Below, piece by piece: positions 14,650-31,238 of a stretch of DNA of 32,170 nucleotides (the first letter of the stretch is position 1; every line of letters starts with the position of its first letter). The notes below the pieces were generated by a model. It ran no database searches, had not been told where the DNA came from, and saw only the letters and a program-made list of their open reading frames with translations. The translations under genes were made by a program, and so were the position numbers. The stretch is taken from positions 1-32,170 of IMG/VR virus record IMGVR_UViG_3300043774_000051, one strand, 5' to 3'. This DNA is from a virus. Taxonomy: Duplodnaviria > Caudoviricetes.

Positions 14650-15708
14650 TTATTTGCTCGATATAATACTTTCATAGTATTCCATTCGATACTTACGCCA
14701 TAACGCTTCATTGCTATTTTGCATCACATCTTCTTTTAGTTGACTGCCTAAGTCTTTTCTTAACTCAGGGTTCTCAATCAATCTACGCATTGCTTTGTAC
14801 CAATCTTTTTTACCTGCCACTAAACAATTCTTGCCGTGTTTGCTCATCCATTGATACGATTCAACATCCGAAACGATTACACCTAAACCGAATGCACCCA
14901 TCTCGAGCATCTTTAATTCAGACTTTGCTCTATTGAACTCGTTGTATCTTAAAGGAATCAATCCGATGTCCATTAAATTATACGCCTGTGCATAGCTGTA
15001 CACATCTGCTGCGTTTATCCTTCCGTAATTGTTATCGTCTAGTATGTAGTTTGAAGTAAAAATCTTTTCGTACTTGTGCCAAATCGAATCACCATCATAG
15101 AAGCCAGCAAGCATAAACTTGTAATCCTTGTAAGGACTTTTATTTAAAGATAGGATTTCGCCTTCTATAAGTTGCAAATCTTCTAGGTGAGTTACTGAAC
15201 CACTCCACCCAATGTTAACCAACTCGGACTTTATTGCTGCAATCTCTGGGTTAGGTATGAATTGAGGCTGTTCAAAGTCGATAGTGTTTGGGAAGACTTC
15301 TACGTTCTTGTTGAACTGCGACACCACATATTTAAGGTAAGGAGTAGTTACCATTATAGCATCTGCTTGGGTAAAGTTGTAAATCAATGCCTCAGCCCTA
15401 TGGTTTAGCTTCCACTCTTTTTTTAAAACGTGGCTATCGCTTAATTGGTAATGGTCATCCGTATCTATTATAACGGGTATGCCTAATCGTTTTAGAATCT
15501 TCCATACGTTTTCCTCGTTGCCTATTCTAGATATTGACCTGCTCGCAATAATTAAATCGAATTGCGATAGCTGCGATTCAGGAACGTGGTCTATACTCGC
15601 CATCTGACTGACATCGTGTCCTTGCAAGTGCATCTTAGAATGAGGAACGATTAAGCGATGGTATTCGCCACCCATTATTTTTTGACCTGTTACTAATAGT
15701 ATTCTCAT
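14650..15708 (-). CDS. Glycosyltransferase (GT-B fold, GT4-like)
   Basis: YHRL..P, IDTDD, AD.I.VTT..L, V.PN, IGW.GS.TH..DL, DIGLIPL....FNR.KSELK.LE and VIVSDV..Y motifs. Confidence 0.85.
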   Translation of the reverse strand: MRILLVTGQKIMGGEYHRLIVPHSKMHLQGHDVSQMASIDHVPESQLSQFDLIIASRSISRIGNEENVWKILKRLGIPVIIDTDDHYQLSDSHVLKKEWKLNHRAEALIYNFTQADAIMVTTPYLKYVVSQFNKNVEVFPNTIDFEQPQFIPNPEIAAIKSELVNIGWSGSVTHLEDLQLIEGEILSLNKSPYKDYKFMLAGFYDGDSIWHKYEKIFTSNYILDDNNYGRINAADVYSYAQAYNLMDIGLIPLRYNEFNRAKSELKMLEMGAFGLGVIVSDVESYQWMSKHGKNCLVAGKKDWYKAMRRLIENPELRKDLGSQLKEDVMQNSNEALWRKYRMEYYESIISSK

Positions 15709-16668: not shown

Positions 16669-16925
16669 ACGTTTAGGTATTTAGAAATAAAAGCACTCAT
16701 AACGCTACTAGCGCACCCAATCATAAAAGAATCAACAAATCCATTGCTTGAATACAAAGAGTAGCTTAAACCGCCCCAAAATGCCATACAGAATGAACAT
16801 CCAAAGGGTTTAGGTAACTGCTCCCCAAAAAGTTTGCCGTATACGTTGGTTAAGAAATCACTCGCACCAATCCCGAAGGATGCACTAAGTGTTGTAAGAG
16901 TCAGAAAAGTTTTTAAATCTGTCAT
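16665..16925 (-). CDS. Small membrane protein with CxxC (DUF1360-like)
   Basis: Hydrophobic segments and KPF.CSFCM.FW motif; the ATG at 16925 is preferred over the TTG at 16934. Confidence 0.6.
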   Translation of the reverse strand: MTDLKTFLTLTTLSASFGIGASDFLTNVYGKLFGEQLPKPFGCSFCMAFWGGLSYSLYSSNGFVDSFMIGCASSVMSAFISKYLNV

Positions 16926-17436
16926 AATTTTCAAGTTTTAGTTTTTTAATTGTTTTTTGTATCGTGTATTGGACTGCTCCATATTTAATGCCAGTCATTA
17001 CTGATATCTTCCTGAACTCGCCAATGTCAATGTATAACTTCAATAATGTTTGGTCATACCAATCTAAAGAATCAATCTTGTCTTTTACTTCTTGTGTGAA
17101 ACTTTGAAATACATCCTCCCTATTTTCTAGTTCAGGGTCTAAGTCACCTTCCAATCCAATCAACAAGTCTATGCTCTCGGTTTGGTCGTTGTGCCTATAC
17201 TTGCGGTAAAATGGCGAGTGCTTCGAGTTCCAAGAGTTGTGTGCTATCTTTACGAATAAGAACTTTAAATACTTTTTTTCTTTTGCCTCAAGTATTTTCT
17301 CATCAGGCATATCCAAAAGATTAATAATAACCTCGTGAAACAAGTCTTCAAATAAAGCAGGTGAGGCTATGTTCCTGCATACATTTCGGTAAGCAGAGTC
17401 TTTGTAGATAGCCTCTATGATTTGTGCTTTATTCAT
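16885..17436 (-). CDS. ECF-type sigma-70-like factor (candidate late transcription regulator)
   Basis: EDL.HEV...L region-2-like motif and a region-4 HTH (L.WYDQTLLKLY...FRKIS..TGI....V..TI). Confidence 0.75.
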   Translation of the reverse strand: MNKAQIIEAIYKDSAYRNVCRNIASPALFEDLFHEVIINLLDMPDEKILEAKEKKYLKFLFVKIAHNSWNSKHSPFYRKYRHNDQTESIDLLIGLEGDLDPELENREDVFQSFTQEVKDKIDSLDWYDQTLLKLYIDIGEFRKISVMTGIKYGAVQYTIQKTIKKLKLENYDRFKNFSDSYNT

Positions 17437-26142: not shown

Positions 26143-26523
26143 TTATTTTTTTATAGTAAGGACTAAAACTGCTCCAAATAACGCAGCGAATAGTAACCAA
26201 TACCACTTAAAAGGATGCGGTTTGGGTTGAAGTGTAGGTATTTTGTAGGATTTGGTGATATAAATTGTGTCGCCAATGCAAGTTCCCTCTATGTAGGTAG
26301 TATCGTTTACTCGGTAATACTTGATTTGCAGCCTATCTTTTATGATAGTGACAGTATCGCCCTTGTAAACGAATGCTGTGTCTTTGCGGATAGTTTCGGT
26401 GCGTATAGTATCGTGCAACGTTACCTCTAATGTGTCGGTTGTGCAGAATTTCTCAATAGCACGTTTCTTTGTATAGCAACTTACCAGCGTAGTAAGGGCT
26501 AATAATATGTATAAATTTTTCAT
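26143..26523 (-). CDS. Putative unimolecular spanin
   Basis: Lipoprotein signal with lipobox LVSC, beta-rich DT-repeat middle, and C-terminal TM WYWLLFAALFGAVLVLTI-KK. Confidence 0.7.
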   Translation of the reverse strand: MKNLYILLALTTLVSCYTKKRAIEKFCTTDTLEVTLHDTIRTETIRKDTAFVYKGDTVTIIKDRLQIKYYRVNDTTYIEGTCIGDTIYITKSYKIPTLQPKPHPFKWYWLLFAALFGAVLVLTIKK

Positions 26524-26783
26524 TATTTAATAGTCTTTAATCCCCACATAAGATTTACCCAAAGCATTTCTTTTCTAGCTTGAACGTGAGTAATCTTTAA
26601 TTTCTTAGATAAATACTTTACGCCAAGTTCAATCCATTCGTGATTTTGCTCTAAAGTCATCGTGTATTCATTATACCAAGCATCTTGCCTGCCAACAACA
26701 TCTTCATAAGACACATTATGTTTGCTAATGGAAAACATTAGATTGATTAAATCAATAATAGCTTGTTTGCGCTTCTCGTTCAT
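26523..26783 (-). CDS. Hypothetical protein
   Basis: 86 aa, Trp-rich, coupled to both neighbours. Confidence 0.6.
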   Translation of the reverse strand: MNEKRKQAIIDLINLMFSISKHNVSYEDVVGRQDAWYNEYTMTLEQNHEWIELGVKYLSKKLKITHVQARKEMLWVNLMWGLKTIK

Positions 26784-27787
26784 CGTATCTTCTTATTGAT
26801 TATCTTCTTATTGTTAACCTCAAAGTCGCCCGTTTTAGGGTCTTTTGTAACGATTGCAAAGCCTTGATTGTGTTTAGATACTTGTGGGTTATAGTCTGGA
26901 GTTATCGTTGTCATTGCACCAATAGAAAAGCATCCTAATACGTTGCCATTCATATCCGACTCCATATGCTCAGAGGTTCTATGAACGTGGCTTATAAGTG
27001 TTGATGTGTTTGTTTTGGTAAACACTCCCCTTGCAGGGCTAACAGGTGCGAATATGCCCTTTACAATGTGGTGTCCGTGTGCAATGTTTAGTTTGCCAAA
27101 CTTCATAAACCTGTAATCTTGAACGTAATCTATTTTCATGTCTTCTAGCATCAATAACTTTTCTAACTTATTATTCAGATAAAGTTCAGGTGCTTGCCTT
27201 ATAACGTAATCTTCAATTCTCTTGTCGTGATTACCTGCATGAAATACTATTTTCACATCCATTACTTTTAGCATCCAAGCTAACAAGTTCTTAACTCCTT
27301 CAATCTGCTCCATTACTCGCATCTCGTTTGGTTTACTAACGAATCTTGATATGGTGTTGAAGTCTAAGCTATCTCCGTTTATAATTATGCAGTCTACGCC
27401 CTCATTAAAGCCGTATTCTAACGCTAAAGTTAAAGAGTCAATGTCTGTATAGGGATAATGAAAATCACCGACTACAAGTGCCTTATTATGGTTCTCTCCA
27501 AATATGTAAGGTGTTTTGTCTTCTTGGGTTCTTAGGTCTAAATCGTACTTAGCACGTTCAGCGTTTAACTTTTCTAGGAAGATTGGAATTTTATCTGCTA
27601 TTTGTTTGTATTTTTGTTGTCCAGATTTGCCTTGAACGTATCTGATAGAAGCCCTTGCATCCTCCAAGTCTTTAAACAACATTGGATATTTATTTAAAAG
27701 AACTTTTGCAAGCGTTCTATTTGTAGTAATTGTTGGGTTCTCCAACATTACCTCCTTAGTCAATTCTGATTTAGTCTTCTTCTTCAT
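26780..27787 (-). CDS. Calcineurin-like metallophosphoesterase
   Basis: GDFH, NGDSLD, GNHD, HGH and SHVH metal-binding motifs. Confidence 0.9.
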   Translation of the reverse strand: MKKKTKSELTKEVMLENPTITTNRTLAKVLLNKYPMLFKDLEDARASIRYVQGKSGQQKYKQIADKIPIFLEKLNAERAKYDLDLRTQEDKTPYIFGENHNKALVVGDFHYPYTDIDSLTLALEYGFNEGVDCIIINGDSLDFNTISRFVSKPNEMRVMEQIEGVKNLLAWMLKVMDVKIVFHAGNHDKRIEDYVIRQAPELYLNNKLEKLLMLEDMKIDYVQDYRFMKFGKLNIAHGHHIVKGIFAPVSPARGVFTKTNTSTLISHVHRTSEHMESDMNGNVLGCFSIGAMTTITPDYNPQVSKHNQGFAIVTKDPKTGDFEVNNKKIINKKIR

Positions 27788-28002: not shown

Positions 28003-28341
28003 CTACCTAATCAAAGTATAATAAATAGAAAACAATGCGCCCCAAACGATATACATAGCAAGTGCATACCAAGTAAACCCAAATATCACAATCAAAAAAG
28101 AAAGTATCATTATCATTTTTGCAAACTTGTACAACTCGGTAAACATCACTAGAACTGTGCCTGCTAATAATTCAGCTAACCAATCGGGAATAAACTGAGC
28201 CATCCAATCTGCAAAGGCGTGTTTTGTTTTCCATCCATCACGGCTAAACCACATTCCATATTTTGCAAACGAATCATTGCTCATTATGGCATCCATAACT
28301 GCGTTAGAGGCGATTGTAAGTACTAGTAGGAAGTAAATCAT
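28003..28341 (-). CDS. Multi-pass membrane protein
   Basis: 112 aa with 3-4 hydrophobic segments; ATGA-coupled to the holin. Confidence 0.65.
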   Translation of the reverse strand: MIYFLLVLTIASNAVMDAIMSNDSFAKYGMWFSRDGWKTKHAFADWMAQFIPDWLAELLAGTVLVMFTELYKFAKMIMILSFLIVIFGFTWYALAMYIVWGALFSIYYTLIR

Positions 28342-28718
28342 TCTGATTGAGATTTGCGTTGTAAGAATCCAAATAAGTTTTTAAGTAAATCAATGCCTGT
28401 AATTGCTTCAATGTTTTCTCTCATAGATTGCAACTCGCTTAAAGCAATCATTGCTATTACAGGCTTAACAAGTGGAATCTGGTCACCAAAATAAACCTCA
28501 CATAATCTAACTGCTGCGATTGCAACTAAGTAAGAAGATGCAGTATAAAACTTTTTAACCATTGCTCGGCTGCTTAATGTTCCTAGTTTATGGCTCTTTA
28601 TAATGCCTGTAATCCAATCGAACATAACCAAACCTCCCACAAGCAATAGAGAGGTTAAAATAGGGGTTAAATAGGCTAATAAGCCCGTTGTCAAATAGAC
28701 TAAGTATTTGTCTTTCAT
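28338..28718 (-). CDS. Holin (Phage_holin_4-like)
   Basis: Hydrophobic helices, DWITGI.K, SS..M and E..S..EN motifs; follows the endolysin. Confidence 0.85.
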   Translation of the reverse strand: MKDKYLVYLTTGLLAYLTPILTSLLLVGGLVMFDWITGIIKSHKLGTLSSRAMVKKFYTASSYLVAIAAVRLCEVYFGDQIPLVKPVIAMIALSELQSMRENIEAITGIDLLKNLFGFLQRKSQSE

Positions 28719-28719
28719 T

Positions 28720-29184
28720 TTACTTTGAGTAAGGGATATAAGTAGTTTTTCCGTTTACTTTCTTAGCAACCAATATTTGTTTACGTTGTGACCTATTTGC
28801 AGCGAAAGAAACGTGAACCCAGTCTGGATTAGTATCTGTTCCAAACTCCCAAATCATTTGGTCAAAATTTAAGTTTTCTTTAATGTAGTTAAATATCTGA
28901 GCGTTGGTAATGTCAGTTCCATCCATATCAATATCAATCGCTTCACCTGAGCAATGTTGGCTGGACAAACTTCCACTGATAGCCTTGTTGAGCTCTGCGC
29001 TTCTGTAACCTGAACTAATTATAATAGGTTTGCCAAAGTGTTCTCTGATTGGTTGAAATATATTTGCAGCTAACTTTTTAAAGTTTTCGATATGCTCTGG
29101 TGTTGGCATATTGCTTATGCCTCTACGTTTTGCGGTTTCGCTTCTAGTAACTTCGGCTAATGAAAGATTTGTACTTAATTGCAT
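28720..29184 (-). CDS. Endolysin, peptidase M15A family
   Basis: S.TA.R.GI.N.P, SSGYRS..LN, SQH..GEA.DID, FDQ.IWE and WVHVS motifs. Confidence 0.9.
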   Translation of the reverse strand: MQLSTNLSLAEVTRSETAKRRGISNMPTPEHIENFKKLAANIFQPIREHFGKPIIISSGYRSAELNKAISGSLSSQHCSGEAIDIDMDGTDITNAQIFNYIKENLNFDQMIWEFGTDTNPDWVHVSFAANRSQRKQILVAKKVNGKTTYIPYSK

Positions 29185-29187
29185 ATT

Positions 29188-29934
29188 TTATTTAGGTTGA
29201 TTATCTGAGGTTGCGTATTTGATACCCATAATAGTTCCGACTATTGAGAATGCGTTAGTTAATAATACACTAAACATATTACTCCAAGTTGAGCCGATTA
29301 TCTGAGTATCTTTATTTGAAAGAATAGCGAATGAATACATAATAGTTGTAATGAAGCCCACGCTCATTATGACAAATAAAGCACTTTTCACAATCACTTT
29401 TATAAGTTCGTTTTGGCTTTTCTTAATACTTGCGTCTAGGTCGTTTAAAGCCGCATCCTTTTCTATTTCAATCGCTTCTTTTAGCTTGTTTGAGTTCTCT
29501 AATTCTGCTTGTAAAGTTGCGGATAATTCATCAATCTTTTTTTTACTTACAACCATCTGAGAAATATCGGTTGCAATCTTCATTATTTTAGTGATGTTTC
29601 CGTCTTCATCAAAGATTGGGTTATAGGTAGCCTGCAAATAAATTGGGCTACCATCAATCTTCTTTCTTTCAAACTCTCCTTCGAAGAACTTTCCGCTTCT
29701 TAGAACCTCCCAAAACTTTACATATTCATCCGACTTACCATACTCGTAATCAACAAAGATAGAGTGATGCTTGCCAATTAGCTTGTCATGCTCATCTTCT
29801 TGAAAGCCCATAGCCTTTAAAAAGATTGCATTCACGCCAAGAATAAAGCCGTTAAGGTCAAAGTAAATAATAGCATTGCTGCGATTAATTGCTTCTAGTC
29901 TGCTTAAAAGTTCTTCTTTAGGTAAGTTTCTCAT
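29188..29934 (-). CDS. PAS domain / coiled coil / 2-TM membrane protein
   Basis: aa ~13-125 form a chemoreceptor-type PAS/PAC domain (AINRS, GKHHSIF, EY..FW..L..G, YNPI.D..G...K..K.ATDI); aa ~126-178 coiled coil; hydrophobic helices at ~184-205 and ~220-238. Confidence 0.9.
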   Translation of the reverse strand: MRNLPKEELLSRLEAINRSNAIIYFDLNGFILGVNAIFLKAMGFQEDEHDKLIGKHHSIFVDYEYGKSDEYVKFWEVLRSGKFFEGEFERKKIDGSPIYLQATYNPIFDEDGNITKIMKIATDISQMVVSKKKIDELSATLQAELENSNKLKEAIEIEKDAALNDLDASIKKSQNELIKVIVKSALFVIMSVGFITTIMYSFAILSNKDTQIIGSTWSNMFSVLLTNAFSIVGTIMGIKYATSDNQPK

Positions 29935-29935
29935 T

Positions 29936-30100
29936 TTACTTTACTACTTCTGCTTCTTCAGCACCTGATTCTTTGATTTGTGATTCAAACTCAGTTTTTA
30001 ATTTTAAGATTAAATCAATAGAATGTTTAGCAGGTAATTCAGCCAAACCTGAAAGAATCATCTGAGCCTCTTGCTCGCTTACGTTAATTGTTAGTTTCAT
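29936..30100 (-). CDS. Small protein, 54 aa (MKLTINVSEQEAQMILSGLAELPAK...), possible fibre chaperone
   Basis: Translated by hand; fills the gap and stops 1 nt before the PAS gene ATG. Confidence 0.7.
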   Translation of the reverse strand: MKLTINVSEQEAQMILSGLAELPAKHSIDLILKLKTEFESQIKESGAEEAEVVK

Positions 30101-30112
30101 GTGTGTTTTGGT

Positions 30113-30400
30113 TTATGGTATAATTGTAAATGTTACTTCTGGATAGTCGGCTTCTAAACCAGCTAATACTGCGTTTTGAATTTCCTCGAATGAAGGATTA
30201 GCTAAAGTGTACTCATAAGTTCCAATTTGAGCAACTGGGTTAAAACTTTCGGTTTCGCCTTGCGTTACAATTTTACCTACTTGAGCAACTCCAATAGTAG
30301 GCACAAACTTTGAACCTGAGTTCATGTAAACGTTGATTAATGGATTTGCATATTCCGTAACTCCATTTGAATCTTTGATGATTCCTAAACTTTGTATCAT
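30113..30400 (-). CDS. Hypothetical protein (possible tail fibre chaperone)
   Basis: 95 aa, directly downstream of the fibre gene. Confidence 0.55.
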   Translation of the reverse strand: MIQSLGIIKDSNGVTEYANPLINVYMNSGSKFVPTIGVAQVGKIVTQGETESFNPVAQIGTYEYTLANPSFEEIQNAVLAGLEADYPEVTFTIIP

Positions 30401-30422
30401 TTTTATATTTATTAAATTGTTT

Positions 30423-31238
30423 TTATTTAGCTACCCAACCTGTATTACCTGTTCCACTTTCTTTAACGTAAAAAGAAGTTCCTGCGCCACCGTCTGACCT
30501 CATAAATATAGAACCTACTGGAGCAGCAACTGCGCCTTCTGGAGTTCCAGCCCCTTGACAAACTGCTGGCTTTGATGTTGTGCCAAAGTGTATTTTAGAA
30601 AAATCATTTGCTGAATCATTTTGCAAAAGCATTTCACCATCATTTGGATTTTTAATCCTTAATCCACCACCTACTTTTACACCATTTGAACCACTAGCAA
30701 AACTAGCGTAACTTGCAAAAAAACCATCTATTCCAGTACAATTACCATCATTGTCAACTTTAAATCGAGTAGCAGTTCCTGCTCCATTTTGCAATAAAAT
30801 AATATCATTAGTCCCGTCACCCCTTACATGAAGTCTTGCGGTTGCGGCGGTTGTAGATTGCCCGATTGCAAATCCTGAAGTTGTAAGATTCATTAATGGT
30901 GTGCTTGGACCATTTATTGAAAAAAATAATCCAGTATTAGCGTTTAAATAAGTTTCACCGCTTCCCGATAATAAAGAAAAATTTGTAACATTTTTTACTG
31001 CAATTTTATTATCCCATATCCCCGAATAAACTCCACCAGTAGAATAAGGACCAAAAAAAAGCCCGCTTGTATCTGCAAAGGTCATTGCTAGATTTGTAGT
31101 ACTCAACTGCAACGGACTTGCATTCCCGTCACCATCCGTAACCGCTTGCAAAGTTCCCGACAAGTTGCCATTTAAGGTATTTAAGTTTAAAATACCTTTA
31201 TAATTTGTGCCAATGTTTTGACCTAATAAATTTGCCAT
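30423..31238 (-). CDS. Tail fibre / receptor-binding protein
   Basis: Gly/Thr/Asn-rich; V.DG.GN.SPL.LST N-terminus, A.LHV.G repeat unit, and C-terminal GTPEG.V.APVGS.F.R.DGGAGT..YVKE.GTGNTGW.AK. Confidence 0.75.
   Translation of the reverse strand: MANLLGQNIGTNYKGILNLNTLNGNLSGTLQAVTDGDGNASPLQLSTTNLAMTFADTSGLFFGPYSTGGVYSGIWDNKIAVKNVTNFSLLSGSGETYLNANTGLFFSINGPSTPLMNLTTSGFAIGQSTTAATARLHVRGDGTNDIILLQNGAGTATRFKVDNDGNCTGIDGFFASYASFASGSNGVKVGGGLRIKNPNDGEMLLQNDSANDFSKIHFGTTSKPAVCQGAGTPEGAVAAPVGSIFMRSDGGAGTSFYVKESGTGNTGWVAK

Follow-up and report, generated by a model that had tools for sequence, protein, structure and literature searches.

Background

By the moment at which it lyses its host, a phage fixes its burst size and also how fast microbes turn over. 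This moment is considered to depend mainly on the accumulation of holin, superinfection being the best-known adjustable input. Phage T4 has, besides the antiholin RI, a further signal-dependent antiholin, RIII. RI delays lysis by holin T from the periplasm, in a signal-dependent manner (PMC11413866). In vibriophage VP882, VqmA-Phage, composed of a PAS and an HTH domain, binds DPO and controls the lysogeny-lysis switch at the level of transcription (PMC7790227, PMC8284805), so that PAS sensors encoded by phages have a precedent. Finally, the pinholin of phage 21 (S21) is a protein of two transmembrane (TM) helices with GxxxG motifs that acts on the proton motive force, the loss of which triggers holins, and a cytoplasmic load on its TM1 turns it inhibitory (10.64898/2025.12.04.692442). 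By function, a holin is recognised by lysis that depends on an endolysin and that energy poisons bring on early, and an antiholin of the T4 type by its binding to the cognate holin and a delay of lysis.

We describe here a viral protein, called below the sensor-hairpin protein, that has something in common with each of these systems. It is encoded in a linear virus record of 32,170 nucleotides (the window, i.e. the whole stretch of DNA analysed), 95% complete, in which Pfam and PHROGs recognise terminase, portal, tape measure and primase genes. Like T4 RI, it is an accessory and dispensable phage protein, proposed to shift lysis time at the membrane in response to a signal; RI, however, is periplasmic and answers superinfection, whereas the present protein has a cytoplasmic sensor, of cofactor type, joined to a two-TM hairpin of its own, and no sequence or fold likeness between the two was found. 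Like VqmA of VP882, it is a phage-encoded PAS sensor that would tune lysis to a cue inside the host, but it has no DNA-binding domain, ends in a membrane hairpin and belongs to a late cassette. With S21, to which it shows no homology, it shares two TM helices, a (predicted) N-in/C-in topology and GxxxG; TM1 of S21 must leave the membrane and S21 has a SAR endolysin as partner, whereas TM1 of the hairpin is tied to about 175 cytoplasmic residues. The FAD-PAS redox sensors AerC, Aer, MmoS and NifL, as well as BdlA and McpS, have the same PAS subtype, the same key tryptophan and the same succession of PAS domain and signalling helix, but in our protein a virus-associated hairpin stands in place of an MCP, kinase or cyclase output. 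In the literature covered (titles and the first part of abstracts, with few subscription papers), we found no late cassette in which a cofactor sensor of the cytoplasm, or a phosphorelay, has a dedicated membrane hairpin as its end point. By the comparisons made here, the protein falls outside the holin profiles, the LOV domains, the chemoreceptors and the VqmA type, and its putative function is proposed to be like that of an accessory lysis regulator.

Results and discussion

Architecture of the protein and of its cassette

The initial annotation had described a protein of 248 aa with a PAS domain, a coiled coil and two C-terminal hydrophobic helices, devoid of kinase, MCP, GGDEF or DNA-binding output, and our analyses agree with this description (Table 1). 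Matches to PAS_9, PAS_3, PAS and PAS_4 over residues 19-126 exceed the Pfam cut-offs, and Pfam finds no domain besides PAS, hence no MCP, kinase or cyclase output. In the AlphaFold2 model (pLDDT 70.6, pTM 0.41), the PAS domain is followed by a single unbroken helix (residues 125-206) that continues into TM1, by a turn of three residues and by a second helix (210-242), and Kyte-Doolittle hydropathy in windows of 19 residues supports two TM segments, with peaks of 2.21 (start 177) and 1.76 (start 220). Hydropathy, flanking lysines and G233-xxx-G237 point to the two-TM, N-in/C-in feature of class II holins and pinholins, the topology being a prediction; the approximately 175 residues ahead of TM1 are unlike the very short N-terminus of the pinholin type. 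The C-terminus is a membrane hairpin and not an HTH DNA-binding domain as in VqmA.

Table 1. Features of the window, and viral loci with a GAF domain fused to the same hairpin
Feature	Position	Strand	Remarks
Sensor-hairpin gene, 248 aa	29188..29934	(-)	PAS, long helix and two TM helices; predicted N-in/C-in
PAS domain, aa 22-126	29557..29871	(-)	Pfam; FAD-type tryptophan W75; flavin binding predicted
Helical linker, aa 125-172	29419..29562	(-)	Likely coiled coil; PAS-to-TM2 spacing fixed
TM1, about aa 177-204	29323..29406	(-)	Runs on from linker helix in model; hydropathy
TM2, aa 217-238	29221..29286	(-)	Nearly invariant; stripe of polar/small residues and GxxxG
M15A endolysin, 154 aa	28720..29184	(-)	Peptidase_M15_3, E 6e-21; PHROGs endolysin
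Phage_holin_4_1 family holin candidate, 126 aa	28338..28718	(-)	Pfam E 6e-9; PHROGs holin
Hydrophobic protein, 112 aa	28003..28341	(-)	No known family
Calcineurin-like metallophosphoesterase	26780..27787	(-)	Frequent neighbour of such cassettes
Candidate unimolecular spanin	26143..26523	(-)	Lipoprotein-like signal with Cys16; hydrophobic C-terminus
GAF-hairpin fusions	L258:1969-2994, L259:3501-4544, L260:3504-4592		Input independent of PAS fusion

The sensor gene ends 3 nt before the M15 endolysin gene, which itself ends 1 nt before the holin gene, both gaps being as first noted. The endolysin, which has no N-terminal TM, is gained or lost jointly with the sensor gene in close relatives; the holin-4-1 gene is retained by relatives with and without the sensor gene, and the 112-aa hydrophobic protein is present in sensor-bearing relatives and missing from loci L175 and L176. 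The product of the last window gene listed in Table 1, possibly a unimolecular spanin by its sequence features, has no match in Pfam or to any other family. A Shine-Dalgarno core precedes only 2 of the 46 minus-strand ORFs of the window, and 32 of the 46 have A at -3, a combination typical of Bacteroidota, to which the host of this phage would belong. Scans for promoters and terminators gave chance level only.

Several other observations were made in the window. Among near-identical relatives (L001-L010), the tail-fibre-like genes just upstream of the sensor gene (29936-31238) vary, and the sensor-endolysin-holin block remains 95-100% identical despite this variation. A portal-like protein (733-2526) shows a weak winged-helix/MarR match at residues 450-492, and a glycosyltransferase gene adjoining the small terminase and a gene for an ECF-like sigma factor were noted at 14650-15708 and 16885-17436.

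Linkage to endolysin genes and optional presence

Of 154 related viral loci, the best 80 were examined, and in 78 of them an endolysin gene lies at most three genes away. By comparison, about 13% of the genes of the window (6/47) are found within three genes of its lysin, which confirms that the linkage of the sensor gene to lysis genes is far above chance. The two exceptions are L009, where the contig ends, and L055, a PAS fusion with no recognised lysin. These 80 loci comprise 28 neighbourhood types and three lysin families (M15, GH19 and lysozyme). When every fetched locus is counted, without dereplication by contig, a lysin lies within three genes of 90 of 92 PAS fusions, and after clustering at 85% identity, all 16 clusters with 1.5 kb on both sides have an endolysin within this distance. 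Proximity of homologues to endolysins, proposed earlier as a check, is kept in the PAS fusions.

In the reverse direction, we started from the endolysin and took the best 80 of 588 loci, 53 of which have full flanks. The hairpin is present in 17 of these 53, and another holin candidate accompanies the endolysin in 16 of the 17 loci with hairpin and in 35 of the 36 without. With the holin as the criterion of selection, 11 loci were obtained, of which 7 carry the sensor gene and 4 lack it. In L175 and L176 the flanking genes are those of the window, but one finds a holin and an amidase-type lysin, and no sensor gene. Because the hairpin occurs in this fraction of loci only, with another holin candidate almost always there, and because L175 and L176 do without it, we conclude that the lysis cassette is complete by itself and that the sensor gene is added to it optionally.

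Small two-TM proteins, of the type encoded at L117:4904-5143, adjoin endolysins in 58/80 PAS loci and in 31/80 loci of the relay form described below; they give no significant family match and are likely an unnamed holin family.

These data bear on the hypothesis that the sensor-hairpin protein is itself a signal-gated holin releasing the endolysin. Its predicted two-TM, N-in/C-in topology and GxxxG recall the pinholin of phage 21 (10.64898/2025.12.04.692442), and in L051, L054, L235, L289, L318, L319 and L328 the lysin directly follows the hairpin, with no further holin candidate among the listed genes. However, holins of large phages may be encoded elsewhere, and another holin candidate is present in the window as in 16/17 of the endolysin-selected loci with hairpin. 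No holin family matches either: the view of the initial annotation that the hairpin is holin/antiholin-like found no support in Pfam, PHROGs and NCBIfam, in which neither holin profiles nor any other family match the hairpin, and HHalign against the neighbouring holin candidates gave probabilities of 4.9% and 1.2%, with no homology detected. Fold searches with the relay-type model (best Z 9.9) retrieved only generic helical bundles and one uncharacterised phage protein and were little informative; no homology to a holin or a channel was found in these comparisons. We regard a holin function of the protein itself as quite improbable.

Interchangeable inputs to the same hairpin

The initial annotation had overlooked a larger family, in which the same hairpin also comes after a GAF domain or after a relay of kinase and receiver. 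The relay form came to light when a variant hairpin served as query (best 80 of 316 loci). It consists of a histidine kinase, a stand-alone receiver and a third protein, in which a small N-domain without known family precedes the hairpin. Of 198 relay-type loci, 194 have a receiver gene upstream, and neither receiver nor kinase occurs in any of the 92 PAS-fusion loci. In 129 phage kinases selected on their H-box, the N, G1 and G2 boxes are kept in 120, 128 and 120, respectively; receiver and H-box counts in this set are circular, since these motifs served for selection, and were set aside. Tandem-PAS fusions to the hairpin have 369-375 aa, and the GAF fusion forms a cluster of 7 members from four sources, including three viral contigs, two of which have a GH19 lysin within three genes. 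In the hairpin tree (a quick tree with midpoint root), PAS-fused hairpins are one group (SH-aLRT 93) within the more diverse relay type. Taken together, these forms show that the same hairpin is an output module with interchangeable inputs, namely PAS, tandem PAS, GAF and a kinase-receiver relay.

Sensorless two-TM forms at holin positions had also been proposed as something to look for, and none of holin size was found. The first short matches were fragments, and the 'sensorless' type P0227 corresponds to the C-terminal part of relay proteins of 181-218 aa, the N-domain being in frame in 76/80 loci, whereas in the four others a contig end cuts the gene. P0372, which would be a second PAS-type fusion, is on a single contig and was not found among 80 viral loci; we did not count it.

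Other genes accompany some of these hairpins. In L156 (3169-3747), and also in L158, a gene for a rhodopsin-like protein of 192 aa (Bac_rhodopsin of Pfam, E 3.8e-12, with the lysine motif of the last helix kept) lies between the receiver region and a relay-type hairpin, and is possibly a light input to the latter. A 62-aa two-TM protein without Pfam family precedes the phage histidine kinase in 30/80 relay loci (e.g. L093:1888-2076), and a 176-aa soluble protein, also without Pfam family, directly follows the relay-type hairpin in 51/80 (e.g. L093:4330-4860), possibly as a further component of the relay. In L051-L054, a polyphosphate kinase 2 gene adjoins the tandem-PAS hairpin on the opposite strand.

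The association with lysins is looser in the relay form. Among 49 relay clusters, 16 have a lysin within three genes and 24 have one anywhere in the fetched DNA, counts that are lower bounds because only four lysin profiles and flanks of 1.5-6 kb were used. Many relay-type hairpins sit among unrelated genes, and near many of the relay loci no holin candidate is seen. One may thus consider that the hairpin is a sensor-controlled effector acting on a conserved host membrane protein, or that it does some other late membrane job (superinfection exclusion, host-energy control), its place among lysis genes being explained because late membrane genes cluster there. The 25 of 49 relay clusters without recognised lysin nearby agree with this hypothesis, and so do the dispensability of the sensor gene, seen in L175/L176 and in endolysin-selected loci, and the invariance of TM2 across very different phages, in loci of 26% to 66% G+C. 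On the other hand, in 16/16 clusters of PAS fusions a lysin stays at a distance of at most three genes despite changing flanks and changing lysin families, and in the large-phage relay loci L235, L272, L289, L318, L319 and L328 the lysin comes directly after the hairpin. We think that this hypothesis is unlikely, while deserving serious attention.

Linker register and conservation of TM2

All 61 distinct PAS-fusion proteins have 109 aa between PAS and TM2, and in 58 relay proteins the spacing takes the values 88, 95, 102 or 123 aa. These are all heptad steps, which argues for a coiled coil whose register is kept; we infer that this linker carries the signal. A stretch of 32 residues over TM2 is identical in 80/80 loci, encoded by 49 DNA versions with a mean difference of 18 in 96 bases, these counts being from best hits selected on a pattern, with more variation in the most distant members. 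In a wider alignment of 89 rows, W217, N219, L224-N227, F229-I231, G233, T234 and G237 are conserved at 90% or more. N219, S222, T226, S230, G233, T234 and G237 share one face of the TM2 helix, and this polar face also fits tight helix packing with no pore.

The proposal of the initial annotation can be put in an antiholin version, in which the hairpin would bind the phage holin directly and the PAS domain would decide whether the holin is restrained. The addition of the hairpin to another holin candidate in 16/17 cases is in favour of it, and RI and RIII of T4 are signal-dependent precedents, as is, in another way, the inhibitory phage 21 pinholin with its loaded TM1. However, holin candidates next to the hairpin belong to unrelated families, the commonest having a mean column identity of 35%, and the unchanged TM2 must then bind holin-4-1 in some phages and the unrelated, variable small two-TM family in others; the many relay loci devoid of a nearby holin candidate add to the difficulty. 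A holin-binding site in so constant a TM2 beside such variable holins therefore seems unlikely; from sequence comparison, self-assembly or a conserved host partner would suit it better than a holin partner. We consider the antiholin version improbable.

Selection and extent of the family

Over 42 colinear genes, pN/pS is highest in the linker (0.19), equal in the PAS domain and TM1 (0.11 each) and lowest in TM2 (0.06), where the non-zero pN corresponds to serine codon switches (owing to the saturation of synonymous sites, dN/dS by Jukes-Cantor could not be used). Purifying selection on the PAS domain is supported by these values.

Residues 126-248 match 4,687 of 4,754 candidate clusters (90% identity; proteins of 136-434 aa). 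A profile of the hairpin retrieves 117 distant representatives among 1.84 billion, and since the longest has 371 aa, there is no kinase, MCP or cyclase fusion of the hairpin among them; some resemble assembly chimeras and were left out of our claims about architecture. When 185,579 cellular genomes were scanned with a pattern, 8 loci were obtained, all of them from metagenome bins bearing seven unrelated labels and mostly on phage-like contigs, with endolysins in L161, L162 and L164, a lysozyme in L163, T4-type topoisomerase genes in L165 and a tail-related gene in L168, the two other loci being L166 and L167. A profile search of 400 further genomes from the phylum of the Flavobacteriales bin of L161 gave no match, nor did the cultured phages and the plasmids searched, and PADLOC has no match for the protein of the window. 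The ESM Atlas yielded three all-virus clusters, all below 0.9, which we take as leads only. The C-terminal part thus defines a large unnamed family that is apparently restricted to viruses. As a side observation, L163, L164 and L162 carry many small genes starting with a hydrophobic helix, unlike modules of tailed phages, and have a tandem-PAS hairpin beside the lysin.

One might contend that this gene is a truncated bacterial sensor or a neutral relic, since its PAS domain is 41-53% identical to those of chemoreceptors. Yet no hairpin-bearing representative exceeds 371 aa or is a kinase, chemoreceptor or cyclase, pN/pS is low (0.06-0.19) in all regions with synonymous sites near saturation, and 0/400 of the further genomes of the phylum concerned have a match. 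This explanation is largely refuted and we find it hardly credible.

The PAS domain and its putative cofactor

The PAS fold is also recognised by structure, with Foldseek matches to LOV, MmoS and NifL PAS domains, and the only solved relatives by sequence are MmoS and Aer. W75 aligns with the F-alpha tryptophan of MmoS and Aer; it is invariant in 47/47 rows and present in every row of the alignment with chemoreceptor PAS domains. This tryptophan is the key FAD residue of FAD-PAS domains, and the sole key one (bioRxiv 10.1101/2023.04.23.537977), and both PAS domains of BdlA are predicted FAD binders (PMC8694187). Flavin binding is accordingly a prediction of the alignment for the PAS domain of the window, in which R90 occupies the position of an Asn in MmoS. 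We take this Asn to be a flavin contact. There is no cysteine in the 248 residues, hence none to bond flavin as in LOV, and the domain is not a LOV domain.

The initial annotation assigned this domain to the soluble-chemoreceptor type and supposed that it was captured from a chemoreceptor. The assignment is upheld by 41-53% identity to bacterial MCP PAS domains (120 best of 609). Direct capture is not, since an origin via phage-encoded kinases, whose PAS domains (54) are 36-52% identical, is not rejected (common origin, p-AU 0.71, with three distant rows dropped). The fused PAS domains form one group (SH-aLRT 92); these are quick trees of 86-115 columns, which do not indicate a donor.

A possible mechanism

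We propose that the PAS domain, with its predicted flavin, would read the redox state of the host, that the signal would pass along the long helix and switch the hairpin, and that the latter would self-assemble in the inner membrane, presumably affecting the proton motive force. Such assembly would shift the time at which the resident holin fires, in one direction or the other (lysis may come earlier or later), which would make the gene an optional device for lysis timing. Flavin binding, transfer of the signal by the helix, self-assembly and whatever consequences these have for the proton motive force and for lysis are all inferred. That the gene has a role in lysis of some kind seems to us rather probable; that it is a flavin-redox-driven effector of lysis timing, acting by its own assembly in the inner membrane, is a plausible proposal that we make tentatively. 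The linkage to endolysins, the status of add-on, the contrast in receivers between relay and PAS forms, the fixed register, the conservation of TM2 and the FAD-type sensor are in favour of this lysis-timing proposal; against it are the proximity of a lysin in only 16/49 relay clusters, the lysin-less L055, the lack of homology to holins and channels, and R90 in place of Asn. A redox sensor would also be partly redundant, because holins already respond to membrane energy. Extended to the whole family, the proposal becomes that of a virus-specific output hairpin, driven by a relay or by sensors (flavin PAS, tandem PAS, GAF and perhaps the rhodopsin-like neighbour), forming a sensor-gated pore that times lysis by the redox or energy state of the host; we put this forward more tentatively still.

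Conclusion

If the lysis-timing proposal is true, a compact gene present in about one third of the cassettes with this type of endolysin would let lytic phages time lysis by the physiology of their host, and swappable sensors would drive one conserved membrane output. As a single small gene is involved, the proposal is directly open to experiment, and a membrane switch gated by a sensor would be useful as a tool. Should the target be something other than lysis, we are still dealing with a large uncharacterised family of viral signalling proteins, of which the collection searched contains no cultured member.
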